The notes under the pieces are model-generated. The model made no database searches. It had not been told where the DNA came from and was given only the letters and a program-made list of their open reading frames with translations. A stretch of DNA of 64,000 nucleotides from Verrucomicrobiota bacterium (GTDB lineage: Bacteria; Verrucomicrobiota; Verrucomicrobiia; Limisphaerales; JAFGQR01), in NCBI GenBank assembly GCA_016935555.1, contig JAFGQR010000011.1, forward strand, positions 21,011-85,010, in the 5' to 3' direction. Shown here piece after piece: positions 35,059 through 64,000 of the stretch. How positions within the stretch are numbered: the first letter of the stretch is position 1; every line of letters starts with the position of its first letter. The position numbers were made by a program, and so were the translations under genes.

Positions 35059-35065
35059 CCCGCCC

Positions 35066-42740: not shown

Positions 42741-43919
42741 ATGAAAAAGCTCTCCGACTGCCGTGTCCTGCTGGTGGACGACACCAAGGTGAACCTGGAC
42801 ATTCTCGTCGAGGGCCTGAAAAGCGATCACAAGCTGAGCCTGGCGCTGAATGGCGAAACCGCCTTGCAGATCGCCGCGCGAACCCCCCCCGATCTGGTGT
42901 TGCTGGATATCGTCATGCCGGGTCTGGACGGCTACGAAGTCTGCCGCCGCCTGCGCCAGATGCCGGAGACCGCCGACGTGCCGATCATGTTTCTGTCGTC
43001 GCTCGAAGAGGTGCAGAATAAGACGCGCGGGTTCGAGGTGGGAGCAAACGATTATCTCACCAAGCCGTTCGAAATGCTCGAGGTGAAGGCGCGCGTGCGT
43101 TCCCTGCTCAAGGCCAAGGCTTACAACGACGCGGTCAAGGAACACATGGCCGGCGAATTGCGTGTCGCCAGGGAAATCCAGATGGGAATGGTGCCCCGCG
43201 ATTTCGCGGCGGTGGAGGCGGCTTATCGGGTCGGCTTCGGTGCCGTGCTCGAGCCGGCTCGGGAAGTGGGCGGCGACCTTTATGGCATTTGCACGGCCGA
43301 CCCCGAGCGCCTGGTCATCTTCCTGGGCGATGTTTCCGGCAAGGGCATCCCGGCTTCGATGTTCATGGTGCGCGCCATCACCCTCGCCCGCCTGCTGGCG
43401 CGACAGACTGTGGAGCCGGAACGCATCCTGGCGCGGCTGAACGACGAACTCGCGGCCGACAACCCCTCATGCATGTTCGTGACGTTCCTCTGCGCCGTGT
43501 TTGAACCCCGGTCGCGCCGGTTCATCCTGGCCAACGCCGGCCATTGCTGGCCGGCGCTCCTTCCCGCACACGGCGCGCCGCGCTGGGTCGGCAAGAATCT
43601 CGGCACCGCCCTGGGTCTGGAACCCGGCCTCACGTTTCAGCGCGCCGAGCTGGCGCTGGGTGAAGGCGACGCTGTGATCTTCTACACCGACGGCGTGACC
43701 GAGGCCTTCAATCCCCAGGAGGCATTGTACGGCAGCGAACGCTTGCTGGCAGACGTCACGGCATTTGCCGGCCAACCCGCGCCGGCCATCACGGCTGGAA
43801 TCCTGCGGCAGGTTCGTGGGTTCGCCGCGGGCGCACCGCAATCCGATGACATCGCCATTCTCACCTTGAAAGTCGGCGGCGGGCGCGCAGACCCTTCCGG
43901 ACAGGAACCCCGCGCATGA
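42741..43919 (+). CDS. Response regulator with PP2C/SpoIIE-type Ser phosphatase output (RsbU-like)
   Basis: The REC domain reads VLLVDDTKVNLDIL...LLDIVMPGLDGYEV...DYLTKPF. The PP2C domain reads REIQMGMVPRDF...GGDLYG...FLGDVSGKGIPASMFM...FYTDGVTEA...DDIAILTLK. Confidence 0.9.
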   Translation: MKKLSDCRVLLVDDTKVNLDILVEGLKSDHKLSLALNGETALQIAARTPPDLVLLDIVMPGLDGYEVCRRLRQMPETADVPIMFLSSLEEVQNKTRGFEVGANDYLTKPFEMLEVKARVRSLLKAKAYNDAVKEHMAGELRVAREIQMGMVPRDFAAVEAAYRVGFGAVLEPAREVGGDLYGICTADPERLVIFLGDVSGKGIPASMFMVRAITLARLLARQTVEPERILARLNDELAADNPSCMFVTFLCAVFEPRSRRFILANAGHCWPALLPAHGAPRWVGKNLGTALGLEPGLTFQRAELALGEGDAVIFYTDGVTEAFNPQEALYGSERLLADVTAFAGQPAPAITAGILRQVRGFAAGAPQSDDIAILTLKVGGGRADPSGQEPRA

Positions 43920-44335
43920 AGCTGGAGTTGCGTGCCACGTTGGAGGAGGTCATGCGCGCCGTCGAAGCCCTGCGGGAATTCGCCAGCGCCCAGGGCGTTC
44001 CGGAAAAGACCACCCTCGGCCTGGCCCTGGCGCTCGAAGAGTGCGCCGCCAATATCGTCAATCACGCTTATCAACGCAGCGCCCAACAGCGCTTTCAAGT
44101 CCTCCTCGAACGGCATGACGACTCCCTGCTCATCGAACTGCGCGACCGCGGGCCGGAATTTGATCCCACCGCCGTGCCGCCACGCGACCAGCGAGCGATC
44201 GACCAAGACGGGCCGGGCGGCTGGGGCATCGACCTGGCGCGGCGTCACGTGGACGAGATTCGCTACCGGCGCGAAGCCGGGGAGAACATTCTGCGCCTGC
44301 ACAAGCGGCTTGTCGCGCCCGCCGGCCGGGCGTAA
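43916..44335 (+). CDS. RsbW/SpoIIAB-like anti-sigma-type serine protein kinase (HATPase_c_2)
   Basis: The start shares an ATGA overlap with the PP2C gene. It has an N-box (LEECAANIVNHAY), DRGPEFDP and a G-box (GGWGIDLARRHVDEI). Confidence 0.85.
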   Translation: MKLELRATLEEVMRAVEALREFASAQGVPEKTTLGLALALEECAANIVNHAYQRSAQQRFQVLLERHDDSLLIELRDRGPEFDPTAVPPRDQRAIDQDGPGGWGIDLARRHVDEIRYRREAGENILRLHKRLVAPAGRA

Positions 44336-44391
44336 CCTCCAACTCCAGTGTCAACCAAGTCCGACTGCCAAACCAAAGAGTCCAAACCCCC

Positions 44392-44778
44392 ATGCCACTC
44401 GACATTCAAATCCAAAAGAATCCCACCGGCGAGAACGCTGCCGCTCTGACCGTCACACTGATCGGCAGCCTCGACACCGTCACTGCGCCCGACCTGGAGC
44501 GCCAGCTTGCCCCCTGGCTGGGCGGTCCCGTCGCGGACATCGTCTTTGACCTGGCCCAGCTGAAATTCATCAGCAGCGCAGGCCTGCGCGTGTTCTCCGT
44601 CACGCGCAAGACGCTCAAGGAACGCGGGGGGCAGGCGTCGTTCCTGAACTTGCAGCCGCAGATCAGGGAAGTGTTTGACATCATCAAGGCCTTGCCCGGC
44701 GTGGCCATTTTCAAGGATGTCGCCGAACTGGACCGTTACCTGGCAGCGCGTCAACGCTCGCATCGGGAGGCGACCTAG
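44392..44778 (+). CDS. STAS-domain anti-sigma-factor antagonist (RsbV/SpoIIAA-like)
   Basis: The 128-aa protein carries DLAQLKFISSAGLRVF, with the conserved phosphorylatable Ser position. Confidence 0.9.
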   Translation: MPLDIQIQKNPTGENAAALTVTLIGSLDTVTAPDLERQLAPWLGGPVADIVFDLAQLKFISSAGLRVFSVTRKTLKERGGQASFLNLQPQIREVFDIIKALPGVAIFKDVAELDRYLAARQRSHREAT

Positions 44779-44787
44779 CCTGCATGG

Positions 44788-44807
44788 CTCACCAGGTTCC
44801 TGGTGAG
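44788..44807 (+). terminator. Possible stem-loop after STAS gene (CTCACCAGG-tt-CCTGGTGAG)
   Basis: A perfect 9-bp inverted repeat lies 10 nt after the stop codon. There is no U-tract, so its terminator function is uncertain. Confidence 0.25.
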
Positions 44808-44951
44808 AGGACATTTGCTCGCGCGCTTCGAGGACCTGCGGCGACGGGAGATGCTGGACGAGAGCCCCGCTGCGTTGGTGGCGAAGACCTGCATCTGATC
44901 GTCATCGCTGCCGCAACTGGCGGTTGCCCGCAGCTCTCCGGTGCCGGCTCC

Positions 44952-46619
44952 TCAGGATCCGGGCATGCCGCCGGTGAACCGGGCGTCCTGCTGTGCCGCC
45001 CAGAGGTATTGCTGGGACGCCACAAAGAGCGTCCCGTTGGCCGCCACCGGGGTTCCATACGCCGGCGCGCCCAGGCTGATCCGCGCCAGTTCCCTGGGCT
45101 CCGGCCCCGCGGCCAGCACCATGAGCCGGCTCTTGGTGCCCACGTAGATCTTGCCGTCGGCCACCAGCGGCGTCGCCCACGTCTCGGCCTTCAAGTCATG
45201 CGTCCACAAGGGTCGCCCGGTCGCCACGTCCAGACAATGCACGCGCCCGGACAGGTCCGCCGCATAAAGGCGTCCGTCGGCAATGGCCACGCTGGCCATG
45301 GTGCGCTCGATCCCGTCATAGCTCCACACCCGGCCGGTGCGGGTGATGTCGCCGGTCTTGGACGGATCGATGCAATGCAGCAGGCCCCGGCCCCGGCCAT
45401 GCATGGGATCCTGGCCAATCGCCACGTAGAGGCGGCCGTCGTGAAATACCGGGGTGGCAATGATCTGGCTGGGGCCAAGATACAAGCCGTCGTTTTTGTT
45501 GGCCGAATTGGCTTTGCGCTTGTCCCCCGCGTAATAAGGAATGGGTTTGCCGTCCCGCAGCCGGTACTCCGGCGGGTTGCAGTCGTAATGCCACACCTTC
45601 TTCAACAACACCGGCTCGCGCGGCACATCCGTCAGCGCCTCGAAAGCATAACACACGCCGTCTCCTCCGCCGAAAAACACGAGTCTCCGGCCGTTGACAG
45701 TGCCCAGCGACGGCGGCGCCCACAGACAATGCCACAACCGCCGGCCCATCCCCTCCGCGTCCGTCGCCAGCACGCGGCCGGTCTCGGCGTCCAGCGCGAC
45801 GAAGCTGGGGGCGTCGGGCCGCGGACACTTCGCGTGGGGGCCGTCGACGCCGTTGGAGGTGACGGTGTAGACGAACCGCCCATCGACCAGCACCGAGCAG
45901 CTCGCCACATCGTGCGGGCAGACGCCCAAGGCGTCCACCAGGTCGCACACCCACACGATGTCCGCGTCGCCGGGTTGCACGGGCACCGGCCTCTTCCCGG
46001 GCCCCACCAGGTATCGGCCTTCGTCGCGGAAGGGACCGTCGTTGCCGTTCGCCAACCCGTCCACATCCAAACACACCACCTCGCACGCGCTCGACAGCAC
46101 ATACGCGCGGCGGCCCGCTACCGCCGGCGACGAGCAGGTCCCGCAATGCTGCTGGCCGTAATGCGCCCCGGGCGGCAGCCGGTCCTCACCCCGGTTTGGC
46201 GTGCGCAGGCGCCACCGCACTTCACCCGTGGCTTCGTCCAGACATTGCACCATCCCGCCCTTGGTCGGCCGCAGACGGGTGTCGCCGCGGAGAATCGAGT
46301 CGTCGGTCCCCACAAACACCCGGCCGGCCGACACGGTGGGATTGCCGTAGAGGTAACTGCCCAGACGCACCGCCCAACGCACATGCTCCGTGCTTCCAGA
46401 AACAATGCCGCTGCCCTGCGCCGATTTCACCCCGGGTCGAAAGAAAACCGGCAATCCCGTTTCGCCCGACACCATGTTGCGGCCCGGATCGGGCCCGCCC
46501 CATTGCGGCCAGTCGCCAGCCCTGCTGCCCACCCCCGCTGCGATCACCATGAAAACGACGGCCCAACCCGCGTGCGGCCGCAGCGAAAACCTCCCGACCT
46601 CTTTGAATGGAAACTGCAT
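44952..46619 (-). CDS. Secreted PQQ-like (BamB-type) beta-propeller repeat protein
   Basis: The start is set at MQFPFKE. It has a signal/TM segment (AVVFMVIAAGVGS) and recurring propeller blades (WPQWGG...; GRVFVGTDD; GRRAYVLSS; GRFVYTVTS; DGRLYVAIG; DGRLYAADLSGRVHCLDVATGRPLWTH; DGKIYVGT; NGTLFVAS). Confidence 0.8.
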   Translation of the reverse strand: MQFPFKEVGRFSLRPHAGWAVVFMVIAAGVGSRAGDWPQWGGPDPGRNMVSGETGLPVFFRPGVKSAQGSGIVSGSTEHVRWAVRLGSYLYGNPTVSAGRVFVGTDDSILRGDTRLRPTKGGMVQCLDEATGEVRWRLRTPNRGEDRLPPGAHYGQQHCGTCSSPAVAGRRAYVLSSACEVVCLDVDGLANGNDGPFRDEGRYLVGPGKRPVPVQPGDADIVWVCDLVDALGVCPHDVASCSVLVDGRFVYTVTSNGVDGPHAKCPRPDAPSFVALDAETGRVLATDAEGMGRRLWHCLWAPPSLGTVNGRRLVFFGGGDGVCYAFEALTDVPREPVLLKKVWHYDCNPPEYRLRDGKPIPYYAGDKRKANSANKNDGLYLGPSQIIATPVFHDGRLYVAIGQDPMHGRGRGLLHCIDPSKTGDITRTGRVWSYDGIERTMASVAIADGRLYAADLSGRVHCLDVATGRPLWTHDLKAETWATPLVADGKIYVGTKSRLMVLAAGPEPRELARISLGAPAYGTPVAANGTLFVASQQYLWAAQQDARFTGGMPGS

Positions 46620-47061
46620 CGCCTTGAAATACCCGACTTGGTTATCCCCTCCCAGGCACGCAGCCAGGGCCGGAACGAGTCGAAGCGCTTGGAGTGGCAT
46701 CGATGGATGGACGCCCAACGCACGCGCTTATTCAGCCCCGCCGAAACACCCAATCCATTCGCGCCGGCTGAGCATCTGCGCGGCGCGCTCGGCAAAGGGC
46801 CTGTTGCCGGGCGCGTCCGGTCCGGGCGCGCCCAGGCGGGCCGCGCGTTGTCCGTCCCGGTGGGAGAGGGTGTCTTGTTTGGACAGGCGGCCCGCTGGCG
46901 CCCGAGGAACAGGGGCATGTGCAACTCGCAATCGATGTTGGTGGCGGCCCGGATCATTTGAAAGTCCAGATCCGCCGACGTGGTCAACCGCCGTGGGTCG
47001 AAGGCCCTGCAGGAAATAACCTTGATCCAAGCCGCCCCTCGTTCTATAACGTCCCCTGATC

Positions 47062-48033: not shown

Positions 48034-48050
48034 GAAAGGCAACTATAACC

Positions 48051-48932: not shown

Positions 48933-49129
48933 CGCGGCCGGTGCCGTGCCCGCGGCAAATGCGTGTCCGCGGCGCACTTGGGCGGCGGCGTGGGCTGTCC
49001 TGCCGCGCCGCCCGAACGCAGGGCGGCGCCGACGGGGGGCCCATCTCGACGTGGCACATGTGGGCCCCGACTGAGGCGCCGGCGCGCATCAGGCTTGCAT
49101 GGCCCGGCGTCATGCGGTAACCGCATCGC

Positions 49130-50902: not shown

Positions 50903-51121
50903 ACGTCCCGGCGGAGAAGGCGATTCGCACCAGCTCGGGCACCAAGCCAATCGCGCGATCAATTCGCGGCACACTACCCTGATGACCCGCTACGTTGCCC
51001 GGATCTCCAGCCGTGGGTCGTTGCCAGTGTCTTGTATGCGCGCGCTCCGCTGGGCGGCGCTCGCGCCATGGGACCAGCGTGGCTCCTGGCTCGCCGCTTG
51101 CGCTCCGCGTAACGCTTCAAG

Positions 51122-51583
51122 TCACAGTTTCCTGAGCACGGCAAAGAACTGCAGGGCCTCCTGATCTTGAGGATCAGCCAGAAGCCTTTGCTTCATGCGC
51201 AAGGACTCGATCTCGGTCACATCCTCCTGCTCGGCGATGTAGTAGATTGGTTTCGGGCGCTCACCGTAAATGGCATAGCAATACCAGTTCATCAGAAAGG
51301 GCTCGCCATTCTTGCGGTAGTTCCAGGTTTGGCCGTGAAAAACCTCGCGTCGGAGGAGCTTTTTCTTCAGCAGGGTCAACACAGCCCGGTCGGTGTGCTT
51401 GCCCTGCAGCATGCGAGGCGTCTTGCCGGCCAGCTCCTCCCGGCCGTAACCGGTCATCCTCAGCCAGGCCTGGTTTACATAAATGATGCGCGGGCCGGAC
51501 GGAGCTTCAAGGTTCGTGTCCGTGACCATGATGCCTCGTCGCAAGTTCTCCAATACGATCAGCCAGTCAAATTTCAGTTGCAT
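51122..51583 (-). CDS. Short LOV-like PAS protein lacking the adduct-forming cysteine
   Basis: The sequence RIIYVNQAWLRMTGYGREELAGKTPRMLQGKHTD aligns with the LOV core (as recalled for YtvA: [33 protein letters not shown]). The downstream flavin-contact-type N/N/Q positions appear conserved (NYRKNGEPF, MNW, AEQEDVT). Confidence 0.8.
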   Translation of the reverse strand: MQLKFDWLIVLENLRRGIMVTDTNLEAPSGPRIIYVNQAWLRMTGYGREELAGKTPRMLQGKHTDRAVLTLLKKKLLRREVFHGQTWNYRKNGEPFLMNWYCYAIYGERPKPIYYIAEQEDVTEIESLRMKQRLLADPQDQEALQFFAVLRKL

Positions 51584-51709
51584 GGTGTCTGTGCGTTGTC
51601 AGCCATCGCCTTCATGGGCTCAGGCATTTCTGTGGAATTTGACACGACGCTTCGCAAATGGCAACGCGATCCGCTTGTGCCACGGGCGTTAGGTTCTTGC
51701 AGGGGCTTT

Positions 51710-53645: not shown

Positions 53646-54002
53646 GATGATCCCTTTCGCTGATGGAAAGTCTGATTCCCGCACACGAAACCGAGCCTAA
53701 CATTGGCCGAATGGTAAATCAAGAGGCTAACGACCCACCCCTGTTCAAGGGGCGCATCGCAGTGTTTGGCGTAGTGCGCCCCGGTTGTGAAGGGCATCGC
53801 ATGCCACTGCGAACCAAGCAGGTTGCGCGAGAATGGGTGGTTCCTCACGCCGTATGGCCCCGTTCTCAGGCCCGAAAGGCGAACCACGGTCAAGCCACAG
53901 GGGAATTGGTTCGCTTCGGCCAGGCTTATGCTAATCTGCAGTTGCATCTTGCAGTTGCCGTCTTTGGACCATGGTCGCCATCTGCAGCCGGCGGGGGGGG
54001 GA

Positions 54003-54815
54003 TTAGACGTAGGTCTTCTCCAACAACGCAGCTGCACTTTCGTCGAGCATTTCCCGCCGGCGCATTTCCTCAAAGCGCGCAAGCAAATCCGGCACACGAA
54101 GGCGCTGTTTGTCGGCTCCTTCGAACCGACAGGCCACGGCGCCGCGATGCACCATTACGATGCGGTCGCCAAGGTTGACGGCTTGCTGCATGGAGTGGGT
54201 GACCATGAGCGTGGTGAGCTTGTGCCGGCTGACGATGTCTGCAGTGGCACGAATAAGCAGATCGGCGCTCTTGGGATCCAGCGCGGCAGTGTGTTCGTCC
54301 AAGAGCAGCAATGCTGGCTTGAGCCATGTGGCCATCAGTAGCGTGAGCGCCTGGCGCTGACCGCCGGAGAGACTGCCGATGGCGTTGCCGAGCCGGTCTT
54401 CCAAACCCATTCGCAATTCTCGGACGCGGTCGCGGAGTTCGTCCATGAGTCTTCTGGAGAGCGCCCAGCCCAGGCCGCGTCCCTGGCCGCGACGGGCGGC
54501 GAGGGCGAAGTTCTCGGCGATGGACATGTTCGGTGCGGTGCCGGTGAAAGGGTTCTGGAACACGCGACCGATCAGCCGCGCCCGCCGATGTTCCGGCCAG
54601 CGCGTGATGTTCTCTCCGGCCAGTTCGATCTTGCCTTGGTCGAGTTGAAACGTGCCGGCGACGGCGTTCAACAAAGTGGATTTGCCAGAACCGTTGCCAC
54701 CGAGGATGATCAGGAACGCGCCTTCCGGAATGGTGAGGCTGACTCCGCGCAGCGCGCGGACCTCGTTCACAGTACCCGCGTTGAAAGTTTTGCAGATGTT
54801 GGAGACAGTAAGCAT
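54003..54815 (-). CDS. ABC transporter ATP-binding protein (COG1101-type, partner of COG4120/COG2984 systems)
   Basis: It has Walker A (GGNGSGKSTLL), the signature motif (LSGGQRQALTLLMA), Walker B (LLLLDEHTAALD) and an H-loop (MVTHS). Confidence 0.9.
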   Translation of the reverse strand: MLTVSNICKTFNAGTVNEVRALRGVSLTIPEGAFLIILGGNGSGKSTLLNAVAGTFQLDQGKIELAGENITRWPEHRRARLIGRVFQNPFTGTAPNMSIAENFALAARRGQGRGLGWALSRRLMDELRDRVRELRMGLEDRLGNAIGSLSGGQRQALTLLMATWLKPALLLLDEHTAALDPKSADLLIRATADIVSRHKLTTLMVTHSMQQAVNLGDRIVMVHRGAVACRFEGADKQRLRVPDLLARFEEMRRREMLDESAAALLEKTYV

Positions 54816-54824
54816 GGCGTCCCT

Positions 54825-55769
54825 TTACGACTGACTCTGTGGTTTGGCGAGCGTCGCGGCCCTTTTCCGGCGTTGCAGCAACTGCGGCAACACCAGCGCG
54901 GCAAACACAAACAAGGCCGTGACCAGTTTGAGATCGTTGGGGTTCAATCCCCAGCGCAATGCGATGGCCACGAGCAGACGGAACAGAACCGAGCCGGCGA
55001 CTGCTCCGTAAATCGCCAGCCCCAGACTGCGCGAGCCGGTGAGCGACTCGCCGATGATGACGCTGGCCAGTCCCCAGACGACCATGCCGATTCCCATCTG
55101 TGCGTCGGCGAAGCCTTGGTACTGGGCCAACAAGCCGCCGGCCAGTGCGACGAGGCCGTTGGACAGCGCCAAACCCATGATGCAATAACGTTGAACGTTG
55201 ACGCCAAGCGCGCGGATCATCTGCGGATTGTCACCCGACGCACGCATCGCAGTGCCGAGTTCTGTTCGGAAGAACCAATACAACACCAGGCAGGCTGCGA
55301 CGATCAGGCTGATTACGATCAGCAGCATGGCCAGATCGCGCGCACCGACCAGCCAACCCATCACGTTCACCTCTGGCGCGCGGAACCATGAGTGGCCCAG
55401 CCGCTCCGCCCATTTGGTGGAACTGTCCGCCCCCAGCAACGGCACGTTGCTCTTGCCCATGACGTGCAGGTTCACCGAGTAAAGGCCGGTCATGACCAAA
55501 ATGCCCGCCAGCAGGGAATTGATGTTGAACTTCGTATGCAACACACCAGTCACCGCGCCCGCCACGAGTCCGCCGCCAAATCCGGCGAGTGTGGCGAACA
55601 ACGGATTGACATGCTTGATCAACAACACCGCGCAGATGGCAGCGCCCAACGTGATCGAGCCGTCCACGGTGATGTCAGCGATGCCAAAGACGCGGTAACT
55701 GATGTAGATCCCCAGCGCCAGGAGCGACAGGATCAATCCGATGGTTAATGCTCCGAGCAACAAAGTCAT
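54825..55769 (-). CDS. ABC transporter permease (COG4120-type)
   Basis: The 314-aa polytopic protein begins MTLLLGALTIGLILSLLALGIYISYRVFGIADITVDGSITLGAA, which is typical of this permease family. Confidence 0.9.
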   Translation of the reverse strand: MTLLLGALTIGLILSLLALGIYISYRVFGIADITVDGSITLGAAICAVLLIKHVNPLFATLAGFGGGLVAGAVTGVLHTKFNINSLLAGILVMTGLYSVNLHVMGKSNVPLLGADSSTKWAERLGHSWFRAPEVNVMGWLVGARDLAMLLIVISLIVAACLVLYWFFRTELGTAMRASGDNPQMIRALGVNVQRYCIMGLALSNGLVALAGGLLAQYQGFADAQMGIGMVVWGLASVIIGESLTGSRSLGLAIYGAVAGSVLFRLLVAIALRWGLNPNDLKLVTALFVFAALVLPQLLQRRKRAATLAKPQSQS

Positions 55770-55781
55770 AAGCGGATTGGG

Positions 55782-57032
55782 TCACGTCACCAGCGGCGCG
55801 CACCAGCAGGCGCCGCGAAAGAAACAACTCTCGCCAGCGCCGTTGGGGTCGCGCCAATCGTTCAGCAGATGCAGCACGCCCAGCACGTGCTCGCTTTCAA
55901 ACAGCGGCTCGAGTGATTCCGCCAAGCTCACCTTGCCTTTGCGGAGCGGACGATACGGGAAGGCCGCCGCGTGGAAGTGGCCGCAGATGTCGCCCGTGAG
56001 GACCAGCGGTTTAAGCAATCGCGGATGCAACGCACGTGAGCCGGTGGCTGCGAGGCCGACGATGAGGCTGACGGAATTGGCGAACGCCGCTTCAGCGGTG
56101 AAGCTCAACCAGTCACGCACCTCCGGGAAGGCAAAAAGGTTTCGCGCACCGGTGACTACTGGCGGGCTGGCAGGCGTCTTTTGCAGCGACGCGCCCACCA
56201 GTGAAGCCGTCTCCGCCAACATGACGATGCCTGCCGCGTCGGTGTTTGCAGCGTCGAGACAGGCTTTGATCACGGCGCTCAAGGTCAGACTGGATTGCTC
56301 CGGGCCTTTGTCGAATCGCAGCAGCCGCGCAAAACCACCACGGCAAACAACGCCGTAGGCGACCTTCACCGTCGGCGTCAGCGCGCCTTGAAGCAGCATG
56401 TAATCCGGCTTGTTGGCACCGTCAGCTGGCTGGCAAACGACGGCACCGCCTGCGCCGAGAAATTCACCGAATGCCGCGCCTTCCAGGTCGCTGGTCGAAG
56501 CGAAAGCGCCAAGGCCGAGACCGATTGTATCCGCAGCAAACGCGACGTTTTCACAGTCGGCGTCCTTCGCGGTGCCTTCAAGCCACGCTGCTGAATCTCC
56601 GGGCCATTGAACGCGGAGCGTCGCGCCGGGGTTCAACTCGAACAGTTGCGCTGTTGCGCCCGCTGGCGGCAGCGCGACGTGCTGGGTGGGTCGTTCGGGC
56701 GCTGCCGTTGCCATTACTCTTGCCGTGTCTTCGCCAACGTGAAGCCGCGTCTCCAGGCCCACCAGCTTCAAGACACTGCGCACAGCGCTCGACGCCCTGG
56801 CGATGATGAGCCGCCCTTGAATGGCGTTGAGCTGACGCGAGTGCAGCACGAGAATCCGGATGCCGGCGGAGCTGAGGTAGTCCACGTCCATCATGTCAAG
56901 CGCGATGACGTGGTAGCCGGCGCGCACCGATTCGGTCAGGGCATTGGCGACGTGGTCGCTCCAGACGGCGTCCATGCGGCCTTTGAGCTTCAGGTCGAGT
57001 TGATCGTCGCGTGCTGTGCGAGTGATTTCCAT
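55782..57032 (-). CDS. STAS-domain protein fused to a ~300-aa C-terminal domain of unknown function, encoded inside the ABC operon
   Basis: The N-terminal ~105 aa are STAS (LDLKLKGRMDAVWSDHV...ALDMMDVDYLSSAGIRILVLHSRQL...SAVRSVLKLVGL). I cannot assign the remainder (...GAFASTSDLEGAAFGEFLGAGGAVVCQPADG...GHFHAAAFPYRPL...) to any family. Confidence 0.8.
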   Translation of the reverse strand: MEITRTARDDQLDLKLKGRMDAVWSDHVANALTESVRAGYHVIALDMMDVDYLSSAGIRILVLHSRQLNAIQGRLIIARASSAVRSVLKLVGLETRLHVGEDTARVMATAAPERPTQHVALPPAGATAQLFELNPGATLRVQWPGDSAAWLEGTAKDADCENVAFAADTIGLGLGAFASTSDLEGAAFGEFLGAGGAVVCQPADGANKPDYMLLQGALTPTVKVAYGVVCRGGFARLLRFDKGPEQSSLTLSAVIKACLDAANTDAAGIVMLAETASLVGASLQKTPASPPVVTGARNLFAFPEVRDWLSFTAEAAFANSVSLIVGLAATGSRALHPRLLKPLVLTGDICGHFHAAAFPYRPLRKGKVSLAESLEPLFESEHVLGVLHLLNDWRDPNGAGESCFFRGACWCAPLVT

Positions 57033-57043
57033 GAGCAGCGTGG

Positions 57044-60001
57044 TTAGGGTTTGGTCGGGTCGGAGATTTCTTGCGCCTGCCGCAACAGCTCATCCGGGAT
57101 GGTGATGCGAACCGCTTGGGCGTTCCTCGCGTTCACCAGCGTCTGCACCTTACGCGGTGGAGAGAACGGAATTCGCGCCGGACTCTCTCCGCGTATCAGG
57201 GCAGCGACTTTAAACGCAGTCTCTCGTCCGGCGTCGTAATAGTCGCGGGCCAGTGCCACGGCGGCGCCCTGTTTGACGCCGGCCCCGTGGCAACTGAACA
57301 GCGGCAACCGCGCTTGTTCCGTGGCGCGCGCGATGATGGGGAAGCCAGCGACCGAAAGGTTGTCAATGATCTGAACCACGGCATCCAGCCGGCGGCCGCA
57401 CAGTGACAGCGCCGCGTCGGCCAACTCCCCCGCGCAGTTGGCCGCGACGGTTTCCACCGTTAATCCGCAACGAACGGCTTCGCGGACGAACATTTCCTTG
57501 TTCGCCACGGAGTTTGCCTCCGCCGGACAAAACAGCGTTCCGACGTGCTTGAACTGAGGGAAATATGTTCGCAACAACTCCGCCATTTCCCGGTACGGCC
57601 CGAGTGTGTAAACGCCCGTGATGTTCGGCAGATGGTCCTGATCCGATTGGCCCGCGCCCGCGACGAACGGGTCGGCCACGACCGTGAACACGATGGGCGT
57701 GTCACGAACCTTCTGTATACCGGCTTGGAGTGCCGGCGTGCCATAGACGACATAGAGGTCCACACCTGCCGTCTTGGCGGAATCATAAAGCGAGCTGATT
57801 GCCGCCATGTCACCTTGGGCTGACAACGTTTTCATCGTGAAGTTCACCCCGTCCTTCAAACCCGCCTCCTTCAAACCGTCCGTCAGCCCGCGCATGGCGT
57901 CCTCGACCATGACGGATTCGATGTAGGAAAGCTGCTGGATCCGCCACTTTCTTGCCGGTGGTTGCGCGACGGGTGGGGCCGGCGGCTTTTCGAGCGTTTG
58001 CATGGCCAGCACCGCAGGCGGGAAGGTGACGCCCAGTTTGCGTGCGACGTCCATGTTCAGGATCACCTTCTCGTCGCTCACGTTTCGCATCGGAATTCTC
58101 GCGGGCTCCTCGCCTTGAAGCACGCGAGCGAGCGGTTCGGCAGCGGCGAAACCAGCCGCGTAGTAGCCAACACCCACCACGGCCAGCGCGCCGCGATTGC
58201 AAAAGTCCGGCGAGTCAATGACCACCGGAATGCGCGTGGTGGCGAGTTGGCCGGCGAGGCCGTCGAACGCCTGGTAAGCCGTGTTGTCGCCGGGGATATA
58301 CACCGCTTCCACACGCCGGGCAGCGAGCGATTGCGCAGCTTGCACCACCTCGCTCGTATTGTTCGCAATGGCCTCGACCAGTTCGACGCCGTGCTTCGGG
58401 CACAACTCCCGCAGCACCGTGACCACCTTCACCGAGTTGGCCTCGGCGTTGTTGTAGAGCGTCCCGAGCCGTCGGAATGTCGGGAACGTGAGCTTTAACA
58501 TCGTGACCGCTTTCTCAATGGGCGGGAACGAGCCGATCCCGGTGACGAACGGCAGGTGATCCTCGAAGCTCTTGCCCGCGCCGGCGGCAATCGGATCCGT
58601 GCAGTAAGTGAAAACGACGGGTTTGTGGCGCACGCCAGCGCAAGCGGCCGTCAGCACGGGCGTCGAAAACGTGGAGATCACGTCCGCGTCGCTTGCGTCG
58701 AGTGACTGCAGCATCGCCGGGATGCTGCCAATCTCGCCGTTGGCATGCATCTTCTGAACCTCAAGATTTTGTCCTTCGACAACACCGAGCTTTCGCAGTC
58801 CATCCATCAGTCCAGCAATGGTGCTGTCCGTGCCTTCGTCAGGACCAAAGTAAGCGATGCCGATTTTGAACGGGCGGCCGGATTTGGAAACAACCGGACG
58901 CGGCTTGCTCTGGGTGGCGACGGACGCGGTTTGGTGGACATCTTTTTCCACGTTGCCGTCTTCTCCGAGGATGAGTGCAGCGCGGGCACGCAGATCGTCG
59001 GTAAACCGCCACGGGTCGCGAAGGTTCTTGAGAACTTGTTTGTTCAACATCAGGTGCTCGGGCATGAAGTTGGTGATGACCAGCGTGGCGGAGTCGACGC
59101 CGCCAAGGATCCCGGCGGCAATGTCGCCCACCACTTCGCCAACTTCAAAGTAGTTTGCGCCGAGATCGAAAAGTGAGCCGTCGCGTACGTTGCCCGAAGT
59201 GTTGGAAAAGACGGGAATCCTGGCCCGGCTCGCCGAGCCGGTGAGCGCAGTGATCGCGTTGAGCACCGTCACATCCGCGCCCGCCCAGAAGGCCTGCGCG
59301 CCGCGCGCCACCAGCGAATCCGCGGCTTCGCGCACGTCCTTGCTCTGGTCCACGTTGGCTTCGAGCAACTGGATGCCCAGTTCCTTGCAGACCTTCCGGG
59401 CTTTGGCGGTGCAGACCTCGGAATTGGCTTCAGCGGGGTTCCAAACGACTCCGACGACTTTCAGGTCGGGCCACTGCCGCCTGGCTTCGCGCAAAATCGA
59501 TTCCACCGGTTGGAACGTGCCGACGCCGGCCAGCCACGGCGGTTTGTTGGTGGAATTCATTTGCCGGATGCCGACGCCCGCGGCGGCGGGATCCGTCACG
59601 CCGCCGAAAACATGAATGGCGCGGCCATCCTTGTTGGCGTTGGCCACGCATTGGAGCGAAAGAGTGCTGATGGAGATCACCATCTTGAAACTGCCGTCGG
59701 TAACGCGCTTGGCTATGGTGTTGGCCGTCGGCAGATCGCCCTCGGCGCTGAACCGTTGCAGGGCGATGCGTCCACCGTCCTCGTAACCGGCGGCGGCGAG
59801 CCGAGCCAGAATGCCGCGCTCCACTTCATCCAGCAACGCGATTGAAGCGTGCTTGAGAATGGCGACGGGAATCTTCGCCTGCGCCGACAACGCGCCATTG
59901 CGCGCCCTTTCACGCGAATGGAGGTCCGACAATAGCAGCGTCAACGCCGCCGCCACGAGCAGGACCAGCGACAGGAAAACACGGCTAAAAACTTGTTTCA
60001 T
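57044..60001 (-). CDS. Membrane-anchored ABC substrate-binding protein with three tandem COG2984/PF04392-type domains
   Basis: The start is set at MKQVFSRVFLSLVLLVAAALTLLL (TM anchor). Three homologous modules each contain a TDP-AAG-G box and a PAEANS box. Module 1: VFGGVTDPAAAGVG...VWNPAEANSEV. Module 2: VVFTYCTDPIAAGAG...LYNNAEANSVK. Module 3: IVFTVVADPFVAGAG...LFCPAEANSVA. Confidence 0.85.
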   Translation of the reverse strand: MKQVFSRVFLSLVLLVAAALTLLLSDLHSRERARNGALSAQAKIPVAILKHASIALLDEVERGILARLAAAGYEDGGRIALQRFSAEGDLPTANTIAKRVTDGSFKMVISISTLSLQCVANANKDGRAIHVFGGVTDPAAAGVGIRQMNSTNKPPWLAGVGTFQPVESILREARRQWPDLKVVGVVWNPAEANSEVCTAKARKVCKELGIQLLEANVDQSKDVREAADSLVARGAQAFWAGADVTVLNAITALTGSASRARIPVFSNTSGNVRDGSLFDLGANYFEVGEVVGDIAAGILGGVDSATLVITNFMPEHLMLNKQVLKNLRDPWRFTDDLRARAALILGEDGNVEKDVHQTASVATQSKPRPVVSKSGRPFKIGIAYFGPDEGTDSTIAGLMDGLRKLGVVEGQNLEVQKMHANGEIGSIPAMLQSLDASDADVISTFSTPVLTAACAGVRHKPVVFTYCTDPIAAGAGKSFEDHLPFVTGIGSFPPIEKAVTMLKLTFPTFRRLGTLYNNAEANSVKVVTVLRELCPKHGVELVEAIANNTSEVVQAAQSLAARRVEAVYIPGDNTAYQAFDGLAGQLATTRIPVVIDSPDFCNRGALAVVGVGYYAAGFAAAEPLARVLQGEEPARIPMRNVSDEKVILNMDVARKLGVTFPPAVLAMQTLEKPPAPPVAQPPARKWRIQQLSYIESVMVEDAMRGLTDGLKEAGLKDGVNFTMKTLSAQGDMAAISSLYDSAKTAGVDLYVVYGTPALQAGIQKVRDTPIVFTVVADPFVAGAGQSDQDHLPNITGVYTLGPYREMAELLRTYFPQFKHVGTLFCPAEANSVANKEMFVREAVRCGLTVETVAANCAGELADAALSLCGRRLDAVVQIIDNLSVAGFPIIARATEQARLPLFSCHGAGVKQGAAVALARDYYDAGRETAFKVAALIRGESPARIPFSPPRKVQTLVNARNAQAVRITIPDELLRQAQEISDPTKP

Positions 60002-60030
60002 GATGGGAAAGGCCGCGCGCTTCTGAGCTT

Positions 60031-60072
60031 TTGACCAGTTGCAGGTTCCATTGGGTTGTCGCGTTGACCAGT
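60031..60072. promoter_or_regulatory. Direct repeat TTGACCAGT (60031-60039 and 60064-60072) in the divergent ABC-operon/STAS intergenic region
   Basis: The repeat was read directly, with 33 nt start-to-start spacing. It may be an operator or a pair of -35-like elements. This is speculative. Confidence 0.2.
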
Positions 60073-60198
60073 GCCGTATTTTGAATCTCGTCGCCCGGAC
60101 CGGCAAGCCTGAATTGTCATTTGGCGCCGGTAAACTTCCCTTGTCGTTTTCTGCTGCGAAGTGCAGACTGGCCCGTGTGCGGCAATGGCAGGTGAACC

Positions 60199-60531
60199 AT
60201 GGAAACTCAGAACTTGGCTAACGCAACTGTCGTAAAACTGATCGAACGAATTGATTCGGTCTCGTCCCGGGAGGTTGAAGCCACTCTCCAAAACATCATT
60301 GTCGGCGGAGCACGCAATGTCATCTGCGACTTCGCGGCGGCCAAATACATCTCCAGCGCGGGACTGCGCGTGTTGTTGGTCGTGGCCAAGACGCTCAAAA
60401 AGGGCGGGGGGCAGTTGCTCATCGTGTGCGCCAGGACCGGATATGTTTATGAGGTCTTGGAAACGGCCGGTTTCACCAGCATGATCCCGGTGTTCGCATC
60501 CGTCGCCGAAGCCACTCAGGCGGCCAAGTGA
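60199..60531 (+). CDS. Single-domain STAS anti-sigma-factor-antagonist-like protein
   Basis: The 110-aa protein carries DFAAAKYISSAGLRVLLVVAKTLKKGGGQ. This closely parallels the STAS protein at 44392 (DLAQLKFISSAGLRVFSVTRKTLKERGGQ). Confidence 0.85.
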   Translation: METQNLANATVVKLIERIDSVSSREVEATLQNIIVGGARNVICDFAAAKYISSAGLRVLLVVAKTLKKGGGQLLIVCARTGYVYEVLETAGFTSMIPVFASVAEATQAAK

Positions 60532-60550
60532 CGCACAATCCTCGCTTCGC

Positions 60551-61015
60551 ATGAAAACCACCGTCGCTGATGTCATTTTGAAGTTCCTGGAAGCCGAGGG
60601 TGTGGAGTACTTGTTCGGGATTCCGGGCACAACCATAGTGCCGTTGCTGGACGCCACGAACCGCAATAAAGCCGTCCGGCCCATCCTGACCAAGCATGAG
60701 GAAGGCGCGGCTTTCATGGCGGACGGCTACGCGCGGGTCAAATGTGGGATCGGGGCTTGTTTCGCGACCTCCGGTCCCGGCGCCACCAATCTGGTGAGCG
60801 GCGTGGCCAATGCTTACATGGACAATGTGCCGATTCTCGTCATGACCGGCCAAGTCGAGACATCCCTCTATGGCAAGGGCGCGTTCCAGGATTCGTCCAA
60901 AGCCGGCGTTGATGCGGTCAAAATGTTTGATCGTCAGACTATTGATCGAATACTCAAAGGAGACTTGACCAGACATCGGACTTCAATCCATATGCGCATC
61001 CACAAGACACCGTGA
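60551..61015 (+). pseudogene. Truncated thiamine-diphosphate enzyme (acetolactate-synthase-like), N-terminal TPP_enzyme_N domain only
   Basis: The sequence VADVILKFLEAEGVEYLFGIPGTTIVPLLDA...HEEGAAFMADGYARV...ATSGPGATNLVSGVANAYMDNVPILVMTGQV is the N-terminal Pyr domain. Similarity stops near 60930, where GC drops, and a stop codon follows at 61013-61015. Confidence 0.6.
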
Positions 61016-61130
61016 AATGGGAAGCTAGGCCACCATCATGGCGTGTGGAAGAATGGCACAACCAGTCGTGGGAGCTAACTGCGTTTCGCTCCGCTCCACA
61101 GAGTCGCTCCACTGGAGGTTCGATGACAAA

Positions 61131-61448
61131 ATGGTGAAAAGAATCCTGACGCAATATTTCAGTACTTGGTGGTTACCTGCATTTGTGTACACCTGCTTTT
61201 TTAGCGGCTACACGATCACAGCGATTCTGCGATGGAAGCCGCTAGGCTTTGTTGCCAATGTGCTGTTCTGCATGGCAGTGGCAGGGTTTTTGGGACTGAT
61301 TGCCGCATGCACATGGAACCTGACGAAGAAAGGATCGGGTAAAGGTATCATCAATCTCTTTCTCATCCTGGGCTGTGGTGCGGCCACGTTCTTCACCTTT
61401 GGCCTTCTGATGTTTGCCTGCACGGGTTCCGGTTCGCGCCCTTTTTGA
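61131..61448 (+). CDS. Hypothetical small membrane protein
   Basis: Starting at MVKRILTQYFSTWW, it has 3 predicted hydrophobic helices. It sits in low-GC context with no recognisable family. Confidence 0.35.
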   Translation: MVKRILTQYFSTWWLPAFVYTCFFSGYTITAILRWKPLGFVANVLFCMAVAGFLGLIAACTWNLTKKGSGKGIINLFLILGCGAATFFTFGLLMFACTGSGSRPF

Positions 61449-61572
61449 CAATCTCGAAGATGGCGCGACTGTGGGCGAGTTTCTGGAGTGGTTCCCAGGC
61501 GTCACTCGGGCTCAGGTGGAGGCCGTGCTCGAACACGCCTCGGCGAGCCTTGCCACCGAAGCGCTTGGATGA
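61414..61572 (+). pseudogene. 5'-truncated DUF433-like antitoxin fragment
   Basis: My translation gives ...ARVPVRALFDNLEDGATVGEFLEWFPGVTRAQVEAVLEHASASL. It resembles the C-terminal two-thirds of DUF433 proteins. The frame opens only at 61411 and overlaps the preceding membrane ORF. Confidence 0.4.
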
Positions 61573-61886
61573 AGATCTTTTTTGACCAAGGCACGCCCCT
61601 CCCGTTGCGGCGGCATCTCCATCCCCATGAGGTGGATAGTGCTGCAGAGCGTGGCTGGTCAACACTGCAAAATGGGGAGCTGCTGGACCAGGCCGAGGGT
61701 GCCGGATATGAGGCGTTTATCACGCCCGACCAGCATCTCCGACACCAACAGCATCTGGTGGGACGGCGGATTCGAGTGATGGTGTTGATGACGACTTCAT
61801 GGCCTCGAATGCAGCGGAGGGTGGGAGAGATGCGCACCATGCTCGAGAGGCTCGCGGAGGGAGGTTATGTGGAAGGCACCTTTTAG
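61569..61886 (+). CDS. PIN-like (DUF5615-type) putative toxin
   Basis: MKIFFDQGTPLPLRRHL...LQNGELLDQAEGAGYEAFITPDQHL resembles DUF5615/Mut7-C-like partners of DUF433. It shares an ATGA overlap with the upstream fragment. The family was recalled from memory. Confidence 0.45.
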   Translation: MKIFFDQGTPLPLRRHLHPHEVDSAAERGWSTLQNGELLDQAEGAGYEAFITPDQHLRHQQHLVGRRIRVMVLMTTSWPRMQRRVGEMRTMLERLAEGGYVEGTF

Positions 61887-62611
61887 AGGCTGATCTGCTT
61901 CGCTGGGCCCAATGTTGAAGAGTTCGATCGTGCTTCGGGTGTATACGGGACGTTGTTCGCGCGATTCTCGCGATTGGTCAGCTTGCCACCGAACTGCGCT
62001 CACCAGCGGGGCGGATTATCAGGACTCCTCCGAGCTGTCGCGGGTGACGGGGTGAAAGTTGCGCGCACAAATTGGGGTCACGTCTGGACAATAGATTCTG
62101 ATGAAATGCCTTAGGTTTTTCATCAGAATCAACATTCAACATTCTGGTCGTATGCTGCGCTGGCGTCGGCTCTGCTGCTGGTGGGCGGTCTGGGATTGGG
62201 CGGGGTGCTGTGGCAGCGGCGGCAGTCCGTGCGCAAGGAGCAGCGGGCATTGGCCATGGTCCAGCAGATGCGGATGCAGCAAGCCGAGGCGCGATACCAG
62301 ATTGAGCCTTCGGATCCGCTGGACCCGGAGACGTTCTACGAACAGCGCCGTGCGCTAACGCTTCTGCACAGCGTGTTGGACCGGCTGCAGGCGGAATTCG
62401 CCGCCGCGGGTCGCCGCTAATGCGCCGCGACAGCGGACAGTGCTCGACGGCACGCGCCTGCCTCTTCCATCCTCCGAGCCTCCACAGGTGCCACCGGAGT
62501 TGCTGTTCAGTGACGACTCGGGGGCGCGCCTCGTGTCGGCCCGCCTGTGCAAAAACTCTGTACCAACAGTTCTTTGGCGAATTGGGTATTTATATAAGTT
62601 CTTGTGGGAGC

Positions 62612-62688
62612 TGGTCGGGGCGGTGCGATTCGAACGCACGACCTTCTGAACCCCATTCAGACGCGCTACCAGGCTACGCTACGCCCCG
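62612..62688 (-). tRNA. tRNA-Pro (anticodon GGG), CCA encoded
   Basis: The manual cloverleaf has an acceptor stem CGGGGCG/CGCCCCG, a D-arm GCGT/GCGC with AGCCTGGTA and an anticodon stem TCTGA/TCAGA. The anticodon loop is A-U-GGG-G-U. The T-arm is GTGCG-TTCGAAT-CGCAC, followed by discriminator A and CCA. Total length is 77 nt. Confidence 0.9.
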
Positions 62689-62749
62689 ACCGAAAACGCC
62701 CGGTGAAACGCCGGGCACGACCCCACCGTATCGCGCCGGCGGGGGAAGT

Positions 62750-64000
62750 TCAACCCTTTTCGTTGAGGACCTTGACGAAAACCGCGGTGAGGTCGTCCTC
62801 CTGGGGGCAATCCCCGGCAAACTCGCGCACGGCCTGATAGAGCAGCTTGACGAGGGTTTGGGCGGGCTCGTGGCGTTTGGCGCGGACGAGGTCGAGCATG
62901 CGTTCGGTGCCGAACAACTCGTCGCGGGCATTGACGCTTTCCTCGATGCCGTCGGTGGACAGCAGGAGGATATCGCCCGGTTTGAGGGGCAGTTCGGGGG
63001 AGGAGCGGTAGGTGGTGTCGGGGTGGAGTCCGAGCGGCATGCCGCTGGGGGCCAGCCGGTGCTTGACGTGACCGTCGCTGCCGATGAGGTGGGCTGGCGG
63101 GTGGCCGGCGCTGGCGTAAATCAGGGTGCGGTTTTTGGGGTCGAGAGCGGCCCAGAAGAGGGTGATGTAGCGTTCGCGGCCGACGTCTTCGGCGAGGACG
63201 GCGTTGGCCACGCTGAGGATTTCGCCGGGATCATCGCGGCGTTTGCTCACCAGCCGCAGGTAAGCCCGCGTCTCCGCCATCAGCATCGCCGGTCCCACCC
63301 CGTGGCCGGTCACGTCGCCGACGACGATGCCGAGGCGTCCGCGGAGCATGGGCAGGTAATCGAAGTAATCGCCCCCGGTGGCTTCGGTGGGGTAGGAGGT
63401 GCCGCTGATGTCGAAGCCTTTGAGTGCGGGAGCGCTTTTGGGAAAGAGATGCTGCTGGATTTCGCGGGCGACACGGAACTGTTCCTGGTGGTCGCGCAGT
63501 TCCCGTTCGGCGCGTTTGCGTTCGGTGATGTCGCGGACGAACCCGACGAAGCGGCGTTCGCCATCGAGGATCATGTCGCTGTAGCTGACCTCGATGGGGA
63601 TTTGGGCGCCGTCCTTGCGCAAGCCGACGGTTTCGGTGGCGCGCCAGTTCATGCGTTTGATGCCGGTTTGGAGGTAGCGGGTGATGCCGGTGCGGTGGCT
63701 GCCGCGCAGCCGTTCGGGCTGGAGCATGGTCAGGTCGCTGCCAATGAGTTCCTCCGGCGCGTAGCCGAACACGTCGCGCACCGCCGGGTTCACGAACAGG
63801 ATCCGGCCCTCCGGGTTCATGAGGATGACGGCGTCCGGGCAGGTTTCCCACAGCAGGCGGTAGCGCTGTTCGCTTTCGCGCAGGGCTTTCTTGGCGTCGC
63901 GCTGGCTGGCGCGGATGGAGGCTTCGCGCAGTTCGCGTTCCACGGCGGGGACCAGCCGGTTCAAGTTGCCTTTCATCAGGTAATCGTGGGCGCCGGCCTT
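62750..64000 (-). CDS. REC-PAS-PP2C (SpoIIE-type) phosphatase response regulator (N-terminus beyond right edge)
   Basis: It has a PAS domain (YRLLWETCPDAVILMNPEGRILFVNPAV...VRDITERKRAE) and a PP2C domain (REIQQHLFP...GGDYFDY...VGDVTGHGVGPAMLM...STDGIEES...DDLTAVFVKV). The reverse complement of 63961-64000 reads KAGAHDYLMKGNLN, which is the end of a receiver domain. Confidence 0.85.
   Translation of the reverse strand, partial: KAGAHDYLMKGNLNRLVPAVERELREASIRASQRDAKKALRESEQRYRLLWETCPDAVILMNPEGRILFVNPAVRDVFGYAPEELIGSDLTMLQPERLRGSHRTGITRYLQTGIKRMNWRATETVGLRKDGAQIPIEVSYSDMILDGERRFVGFVRDITERKRAERELRDHQEQFRVAREIQQHLFPKSAPALKGFDISGTSYPTEATGGDYFDYLPMLRGRLGIVVGDVTGHGVGPAMLMAETRAYLRLVSKRRDDPGEILSVANAVLAEDVGRERYITLFWAALDPKNRTLIYASAGHPPAHLIGSDGHVKHRLAPSGMPLGLHPDTTYRSSPELPLKPGDILLLSTDGIEESVNARDELFGTERMLDLVRAKRHEPAQTLVKLLYQAVREFAGDCPQEDDLTAVFVKVLNEKG

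Follow-up and report, generated by a model that had tools for sequence, protein, structure and literature searches.

Partner-switching genes and an ABC importer operon with an embedded STAS fusion gene as a candidate conserved cassette of Verrucomicrobiota and Planctomycetota

The DNA analysed here is a stretch of 64,000 nucleotides from a Verrucomicrobiota bacterium (assembly GCA_016935555.1, contig JAFGQR010000011.1, positions 21,011 to 85,010 of the forward strand), which is called the window below. It harbors genes of the partner-switching type, namely one RsbW-type kinase, two PP2C phosphatases and three STAS proteins, together with the operon of a binding-protein-dependent ATP-binding cassette (ABC) importer. 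One of the STAS proteins, a fusion of a STAS domain with a second, larger domain (referred to as STAS-X), is encoded inside this operon. As judged from comparison with related loci, all these genes appear to be parts of one conserved Planctomycetes-Verrucomicrobia cassette built around the importer, which was split in the window by a rearrangement. The G+C content of the window is ~66%, and its nearest protein relatives found by protein search come from Verrucomicrobiota metagenomes. Genes were chosen by codon-position G+C together with Pfam matches. The parts of the cassette are as follows (positions are those of the window):

37881..42716, plus strand: hybrid sensor histidine kinase, 1611 aa (Pfam: dCache, HAMP, GAF, two PAS, HisKA, HATPase, two REC and Hpt domains; two transmembrane segments)
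42741..43919, plus strand: REC-PP2C (SpoIIE-family) phosphatase, 392 aa (Pfam: Response_reg 2.8e-24, SpoIIE 5.7e-48)
43916..44335, plus strand: RsbW-type GHKL serine kinase, 139 aa (HATPase_c_2 1.1e-25), the sole such gene in the window
44392..44778, plus strand: small STAS protein, 128 aa, phospho-site Ser62 (Pfam STAS; alignments)
54003..54815, minus strand: ABC ATPase, 270 aa (ABC_tran 3e-28), kept in all 26 full-flank loci described below
54825..55769, minus strand: ABC permease (BPD_transp_2), 314 aa, a multi-pass membrane protein (Pfam; hydropathy)
55782..57032, minus strand: STAS-X, 416 aa (residues 1-100 STAS, phospho-site Ser55; residues ~115-416 second domain)
57044..60001, minus strand: membrane-anchored binding protein of three tandem PF04392 (TrpX-like) domains, 985 aa (ABC_sub_bind 2.8e-144 in three stretches; NCBIfam TrpX)
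60199..60531, plus strand: second small STAS protein, 110 aa, phospho-site Ser53 (Pfam STAS), divergent from the binding-protein gene with a 197-bp spacer
60551..61015, plus strand: remnant of an acetolactate-synthase-like thiamine pyrophosphate (TPP) enzyme gene (TPP_enzyme_N 1.7e-39; NCBIfam acetolactate synthase models), of which only the N-terminal ~120 aa match
62750..63976, minus strand: PAS-PP2C phosphatase, 408 aa, complete (PAS_9 1.6e-16, SpoIIE 2.4e-49)

The first four genes are close-packed on the plus strand at 37.9-44.8 kb. The Hpt domain forms the C-terminus of the hybrid kinase and the REC-PP2C gene begins 24 bp downstream, an arrangement in which the hybrid kinase is likely the phosphorelay input to this phosphatase. 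The phosphatase sequence shows the Asp and Lys residues of REC and the PP2C metal motifs GDVSGKG, YTDG and SDD. Its stop is overlapped by 4 bp by the start of the RsbW-type kinase gene. The N, G1 and G2 boxes of this kinase (E..N..H, DxGxxFD and GGxG) align with those of Bacillus subtilis RsbW (6m36), and its top matches among the NCBIfam models are RsbW and RsbA. The top PDB sequence match is 9qih_A ("SenB", 304 aa), for which a literature search found no relevant paper. The gene of the 128-aa STAS protein follows 56 bp after the kinase gene. This protein matches the STAS proteins encoded after the ATPase gene in four of the related loci (L002, L005, L008 and L019) at 70-77 bits, and it corresponds to the STAS protein whose gene comes next to that of the ABC ATPase, on its downstream side, in most relatives.

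The importer operon occupies 54.0-60.0 kb of the minus strand in the order binding protein, STAS-X, permease, ATPase, with 9-12 bp between the genes. The STAS-X gene is squeezed between the binding-protein and permease genes at 11-12 bp from both. According to Pfam, the importer is composed of the same families (PF04392, BPD_transp_2 and ABC ATPase) as the TrpXYZ type. The binding protein scores 447 bits with the TrpX model NF041285, a value summed over three domains, while the cut-off of 390 is set for one domain; each single domain is far under this equivalog cut-off. The start of the binding protein is the ATG at 60001, which opens an N-terminal signal-anchor transmembrane helix and fits the length of the homologues (984-985 aa); a mechanically listed TTG start at 60106 is over-extended and was rejected. 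The initial guess about STAS-X, a STAS domain fused to a permease, had come from the operon position. It was ruled out by the structure model and by hydropathy analysis, in which the protein shows no hydrophobic segments; STAS-X is predicted to be soluble.

All three STAS proteins match the Pfam STAS family. The motifs listed in a preliminary description of this DNA, which was made from the letters alone, are found where it had put them: KFISSAGLRVF in the 128-aa protein, KYISSAGLRVL in the 110-aa protein and DYLSSAGIRIL in STAS-X, along with KTLKERGGQ and KTLKKGGGQ of the two small proteins. Gapless HMMER alignments to 1auz, 1th8 and 6m36 place the second Ser of each SS pair (S62, S53 and S55) in the same column as SpoIIAA Ser58 and RsbV Ser56, so the assignment of the box to the phospho-serine position stands. 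The serine column is invariant in the five-sequence alignment of the three window STAS domains with SpoIIAA and RsbV, and in STAS-X both serines of the pair are conserved at 98-99% among 128 representatives of 50%-identity clusters. Two points about the motifs need correction. The SSAG(L/I)R box is not specific to these three proteins; it is found also in the unrelated Haliangium STAS structure 4hyl, and boxes of this kind are general among STAS proteins that come from genera other than Bacillus. The three proteins were called paralogues; they are not recent ones, because overall identity among their STAS domains is only 19-35%.

For the inventory of such genes, family hidden Markov models (HMMs) were built from relatives and run on every open reading frame (ORF) of at least 40 aa in six frames of the 64 kb. 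This gave one RsbW, three STAS and two PP2C proteins, all at 42.7-64 kb and none earlier. The count of parts in the preliminary description, including the single RsbW-type kinase gene, is reproduced by this inventory; what it had wrong or without support are the details of paralogy, the type of one phosphatase and a possible sigma-factor fragment. Both phosphatases had been taken for REC-PP2C proteins, whereas the one at 62750 is a PAS-PP2C, lies on the minus strand and is complete inside the window. The absence of a sigma factor, also claimed there, agrees with the Pfam scan of the window ORFs (complemented by NCBIfam for the ORFs near 62300), in which no sigma-factor domain was found. The ECF-sigma-like fragment suspected near 62300 found no support from Pfam or NCBIfam, whether at E<=1 or at E<=10. 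A single match turned up there, to an anti-sigma model, with 15.9 bits against a cut-off of 100. A promoter and terminator scan of 44-64 kb showed no enrichment over shuffles.

A pattern scan retrieved 47 related genome loci. They belong to Verrucomicrobiota and Planctomycetota, with a small number from metagenome-assembled genomes of Binatia and proteobacteria, and the cultured Prosthecobacter fluviatilis is among them. The loci were annotated with phmmer and HMMs from the window proteins, and those with at least 6 kb of flank on both sides (26 loci) formed the full-flank set. The order binding protein, STAS-X, permease, ATPase is found in 26 of the 26 full-flank loci. RsbW, small STAS and PP2C genes are each present in 22 of them and all three in 21. 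Their nearest copies lie at median distances of 146, 454 and 736 bp from the operon, respectively, and usually within 1.5 kb, while almost no further copies of these three families occur farther out in the flanks. The serine of STAS-X is retained even in loci without a nearby kinase.

In Verrucomicrobiaceae including Prosthecobacter, RsbW and STAS are fused into one ~250-aa protein encoded directly after the ATPase gene (L022, L025-L034, L039-L043 and L048; e.g. 12813..13724 of L034). In two loci (L008 and L019) a STAS orthologue of the 110-aa protein stands beside RsbW upstream, and a STAS protein of the 128-aa type follows the ATPase; orthologues of the 110-aa protein (170-190 bits) adjoin RsbW in these two loci and in L001. 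Opitutaceae TAV1 (L051) has one co-directional cluster of binding protein, STAS-X, permease, ATPase, a 132-aa STAS, RsbW, a 111-aa STAS, REC, REC-PP2C and a Cache hybrid kinase. Because relatives, TAV1 among them, have the same set, the combination of three STAS proteins with a single RsbW-type kinase, a REC-PP2C and a sensor kinase is the conserved list of parts and no peculiarity of the window. In the TAV1 locus the cassette is immediately preceded by a gene of threonine dehydratase (IlvA-type, 4430..5992), and a gene of the GPP34 family (13537..14202) is located between the STAS genes and REC-PP2C. The presence of the dehydratase may be in line with a connection to the metabolism of branched-chain amino acids or 2-oxo acids, or may be a coincidence.

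The nearest relative of the window is L001, whose STAS-X is 83% identical. Both blocks are contiguous there; in the window one block is inverted relative to L001 and ~9 kb of other genes lie in between. It was noted previously that the parts are concentrated within ~21 kb. All of them do lie at 42.7-64 kb, and judging from L001 this spread is the product of a local rearrangement that split one cassette. The homology of the window to L001 stops at 60930. Near this point, at 60500..62750, there is a patch of lower G+C (56%) beside tRNA-Pro(GGG) (62612..62688), which contains the truncated acetolactate synthase gene, a small transmembrane ORF (61038..61448) and fragments of a DUF433/DUF5615 toxin-antitoxin pair (61414..61886). 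The patch looks like a scar of a rearrangement or insertion, located just where the similarity to L001 breaks off.

Depending on the genome, the PP2C sensor domain is cNMP-binding, dCache-HAMP, REC, GAF or PAS; differing inputs on an unchanging core are the usual pattern. The chain of binding domains consists of 1 to 5 copies across the loci. In six loci (L009, 3389..4423; L010, L012, L013, L018 and L020) a gene of an NMT1/THI5-like periplasmic binding protein is located just upstream of the dCache-HAMP-PP2C gene, and its product may be a co-sensor for this phosphatase. Clustering of the leftover ORFs of about 45 related loci revealed no sigma factor or transcription factor recurring across clades. 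Besides the cassette genes, only an acetolactate synthase (ALS)-type enzyme and the NMT1-like binding protein recur across clades in this clustering; other conserved neighbours (DUF1501, PSD1 and MFS) were set aside as clade-specific synteny only.

An intact gene of the TPP enzyme is located directly downstream of the RsbW/STAS pair, in one operon with it, in five loci (L008, L013, L016, L017 and L019). The enzyme of L016, a Planctomycete, passes the AlsS equivalog cut-offs (766 versus 510 bits and 713 versus 551 bits). Those of Verrucomicrobia are ALS-like and under the threshold, and the window and L001 keep remnants only. AlsS and acetolactate decarboxylase (ALDC) are consecutive enzymes of the acetoin pathway.

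The second domain of STAS-X had been seen only as the partner of a STAS fusion at 55782. The fusion is real, and its identity can now be given as STAS plus a domain of ~300 aa. Protein search yielded ~2000 full-length relatives (clusters at 90% identity) of ~400-430 aa, which among the matches listed are unnamed or carry only the names "STAS domain-containing protein" or "anti-anti-sigma factor". When the second domain by itself served as query, an exhaustive HMMER search gave 747 representatives of 50%-identity clusters, and all of them, bar shorter fragment-like entries, have ~110 residues ahead of the domain. A divergent clade of STAS-X lies at ~40% identity, and conservation is at least 40% across phyla. 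For 64 members no Pfam model matches the second domain, even at E<=10; it has no NCBIfam match, and a profile search of the PDB came out empty.

A first structure model, built with 20 close homologues, was discarded (pLDDT, the predicted local distance difference test score, was below 50 in the second domain). The second model was built with 64 diverse sequences and has pLDDT of 88 and a predicted template-modelling score (pTM) of 0.88. In a Foldseek search of the PDB, residues 1-110 of STAS-X match SpoIIAA, RsbV and MlaB, and the rest of the protein matches alpha-acetolactate decarboxylases (1xv2, 5yho, 6j92, 4bt2 and 5xne) with E of 8.5e-6 to 1e-3, TM-scores of 0.53-0.66 (target-normalised) and identity of 10-14%. 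The second domain is therefore modelled with the alpha-acetolactate decarboxylase fold. The relationship is at the level of fold only, because the profile-profile comparison is negative: hhalign of the second domain against an ALDC alignment gives a probability of 0.7%. Likewise, the ALDC family PF03306 is matched by 0 of the 64 STAS-X members at E<=10.

Residues E190, D210, E274, H352, H354, H388, D392, R394 and W410 are 96-100% conserved in the 128 cluster representatives. The HxH motif, the third His and the acidic residues recall the zinc site of ALDC, and it is a guess from the sequences that they are its equivalents; the third His of STAS-X is found 34 residues past HxH and that of ALDC 11. 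The probable ligand or substrate of the second domain is a small 2-hydroxy or 2-oxo acid akin to acetolactate, which would couple transport to metabolic state.

A 725-aa ORF on the plus strand (44784..46961+) after the first STAS gene was considered as an output protein and rejected as a wrong-frame artefact of the high G+C; it is rich in Arg, Ala, Gly and Pro, and the real gene lies opposite:

44952..46718, minus strand: PQQ_2/BamB-like beta-propeller

The region of 47-53.7 kb, between the two blocks, is filled with genes unrelated to the cassette. These encode DUF6599 and DUF362 proteins, a CitMHS transporter, a stand-alone PAS protein (153 aa, 51122..51583, minus strand) and a 510-aa protein (52152..53684, minus strand). 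The last has no Pfam match and shows only a weak 25-bit similarity to sulfoquinovose isomerase. Neither it nor the PAS protein was found in the related loci. Directly upstream of the hybrid kinase (33454..37480) are genes of a trehalose-phosphatase/HAD fusion and a GH65 glycoside phosphorylase, with no sign of cassette membership seen. At the start of the window (1981..4960) rnpA and yidC are found, a pair that usually marks the neighbourhood of the replication origin.

From the observed gene content, linkage, serine position, kinase and phosphatase motifs, fold and invariant residues we infer an order of phosphorylation events, a contact of STAS-X with the transporter and the nature of a ligand. 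The dCache hybrid kinase would pass phosphate via Hpt to REC-PP2C, and a second input would arrive through PAS-PP2C. The active PP2C would dephosphorylate the small STAS protein or proteins, which in this form would sequester RsbW. Free RsbW would bind STAS-X, phosphorylate it at Ser55, or both. The state of Ser55 would then alter either the action of STAS-X on the ATPase and permease or the activity of its second domain, and uptake would be switched post-translationally and not via a sigma factor. That a phosphorelay-driven partner switch controls the ABC importer via STAS-X is the most likely reading of the sequences, though a tentative one, to which we give a little less than an even chance. 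A wider claim is possible and more doubtful, namely that this is an undescribed widespread unit (~750 clusters at 50% identity), in which a kinase/phosphatase switch gates an importer directly via a phospho-STAS subunit with a new ALDC-like metal-binding domain, be it sensor or enzyme. In a full-text search of open-access literature and bioRxiv no description was found of a cassette that combines STAS, ABC_sub_bind and a partner switch, nor of STAS fused to an ALDC-like domain; the component families and non-sigma partner switches are already known.

Several observations weigh against control of the importer by the switch. Three full-flank loci (L015, L038 and L045) have the transporter with STAS-X and no partner-switch genes within 10 kb. 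The RsbW-type kinase of the window is 9.7 kb away from the transporter. It has a sensor kinase, a phosphatase and a STAS protein of its own in the same tight operon, and it could act on the 128-aa STAS protein alone. It is possible that a sigma factor or another target is encoded elsewhere in the genome. The second domain is without detectable sequence or profile similarity to acetolactate decarboxylase, and the equivalence of its His triad to the zinc site is a guess made in spite of the differing spacing. Finally, the ALS gene is missing from most loci and decayed in the window, and for this reason ALS is not essential to the system.

The same parts can be arranged in other ways. The transporter might be the sensor and not the target: STAS-X would read substrate binding or flux and compete with the small STAS proteins for RsbW, the output (a sigma factor or another protein bound by RsbW) being encoded elsewhere. 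Targets of partner switches are often unlinked, e.g. those of HsbA, which acts on FlgM, HsbD and RpoS (PMC5085249, PMC6482189), a chain of one to five binding domains might suit a sensor, and the serine of STAS-X is kept where no kinase is nearby. On the other hand, inputs are already given by the PP2C sensor domains, no candidate output recurs near the about 45 loci, and the full permease and ATPase are always kept. We regard a sensory transporter as rather unlikely. We consider it similarly improbable that STAS-X works chiefly as a metalloenzyme under phospho-regulation, a decarboxylase or isomerase of ALDC-like type. Its substrates would be the compound taken up or the acetolactate-type products of the neighbouring ALS, with the transporter only supplying the substrate and the switch tuning the activity. 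The position of its gene between those of the binding protein and the permease, with gaps of 11-12 bp, is typical of a transporter subunit, ALDC is matched by neither sequence nor profile, and ALS is absent from most loci and decayed here. The enzymatic role is favored by the modelled ALDC fold, by three His and several acidic residues invariant in the 128 representatives, by AlsS/ALS-like genes beside RsbW/STAS in five loci and by the very high conservation across phyla.

Much less probable are two further schemes. In the preliminary description the genes were viewed as a branched partner-switching network with non-sigma outputs. The corresponding scheme is a generic set of paralogues that would be close by chance in a genome rich in such genes and would share no particular target. 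A partner-switching set without a sigma factor is indeed present, but it appears as one cassette around an ABC importer and not as a loose network of paralogues; the transporter, the nature of the fusion partner and the acetolactate synthase remnant had been overlooked. The generic nature of the SSAGLR box would fit chance clustering, which is nevertheless contradicted because the linkage is conserved: in Verrucomicrobiota, Planctomycetota and a small number of further phyla this transporter is accompanied by this set, some of whose genes are fused, and no extra copies are scattered in the flanks. The spread over phyla speaks against an artefact of close relatives. Hardly any more credence is due to a small stressosome-like complex with STAS-X as RsbR, the small STAS protein as RsbS and the kinase as RsbT. 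It would account for the presence of a multidomain STAS protein next to single-domain ones, as well as for a single small GHKL kinase and PP2C. The domain order is reversed, with STAS N-terminal in STAS-X, the best matches of the kinase are the RsbW and RsbA models, and the constant partner is an ABC operon.

Partner switching is a textbook mechanism of sigma-factor control, and its non-sigma outputs are known case by case. Comparative genomics here points to a specific and conserved non-transcriptional target, a nutrient importer. If the wider claim made above is true, no earlier natural case of an ABC transporter controlled by a phospho-STAS would be known, as this possibility was suggested for MlaB without being settled, and a new protein domain family linked to acetolactate metabolism would be added. 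The recurring ALS neighbour suggests a tie between uptake and the metabolism of 2-oxo acids or branched-chain amino acids. Phospho-regulation of STAS subunits of ABC transporters becomes testable, as the transporter genes have those of a kinase and a phosphatase next to them and some of the hosts are in culture (Prosthecobacter fluviatilis, P. vanneervenii and Opitutaceae TAV1). The hosts belong to poorly studied and environmentally abundant phyla, and ~2000 database proteins carry this large conserved domain with a probable metal site and without a family model.

The window shares with the RsbU-RsbV-RsbW and SpoIIE-SpoIIAA-SpoIIAB systems of Bacillus the three protein families, the serine position and the N, G1 and G2 boxes of the kinase; it differs from them in that the window and the conserved neighbourhood are without a sigma factor. 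The chlamydial Rsb system (RsbW, RsbV1, RsbV2 and RsbU), which belongs to the same Planctomycetes-Verrucomicrobia-Chlamydiae (PVC) superphylum, likewise pairs a single kinase with two or more STAS substrates. To our knowledge, its operon has no dedicated alternative sigma factor, and we know of no chlamydial STAS protein that is other than single-domain or is tied to an ABC importer. RsbR of the stressosome has an N-terminal sensor and a C-terminal STAS domain, and in STAS-X the STAS domain is N-terminal. In SulP/SLC26 proteins the STAS domain follows a transport domain embedded in the membrane; in STAS-X hydrophobic segments are lacking, and the domain that comes after STAS is modelled as soluble and beta-rich. 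With ALDC (AlsD/BudA, PF03306) this domain shares, in the model, a two-lobed beta-rich fold (Foldseek E down to 8.5e-6), as well as an HxH motif in one of the late strands and one more His that is invariant, and AlsS is nearby in some genomes. It differs in being always fused behind STAS, in lacking sequence or profile similarity and in the spacing of the third His (34 versus 11).

The tryptophan importer TrpXYZ is composed of the same families of binding protein, permease and ATPase (PMC9382623), whereas the binding protein of the window is a membrane-anchored chain of three domains and the operon has the extra STAS-X gene. HptB-HsbR-HsbA of Pseudomonas and CrsR-CrsA of Shewanella have in common with the window an Hpt phosphorelay that leads to REC-PP2C and then to an RsbW-like kinase and a phospho-serine STAS protein, and the HptB pathway also has outputs beyond a co-encoded sigma factor (PMC5085249, PMC6482189). 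HsbR combines REC, PP2C and kinase in one polypeptide, whereas the kinase of the window is a separate 139-aa gene product with a 4-bp gene overlap. Moreover, that pathway has one STAS protein versus three in the window, and its neighbours are flagellar or cyclic di-GMP genes versus an ABC importer with a STAS fusion. In MlaFEDB, as in the window, a STAS protein is encoded inside an ABC transporter operon. MlaB is a single-domain STAS protein with no known kinase, in contrast to STAS-X with its 300-aa second domain and a kinase and phosphatase alongside, and Mla is an MCE-type lipid system, whereas the window encodes a binding-protein-dependent importer (PF04392/BPD_transp_2). In MlaB, Thr52, the equivalent of the phospho-site, is located in the interface with the ATPase MlaF and a phosphomimetic substitution weakens binding; phosphoregulation was proposed and left open (PMC7367683). 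By analogy, the MlaB-MlaF pair offers the best precedent for an action of STAS-X on the importer.

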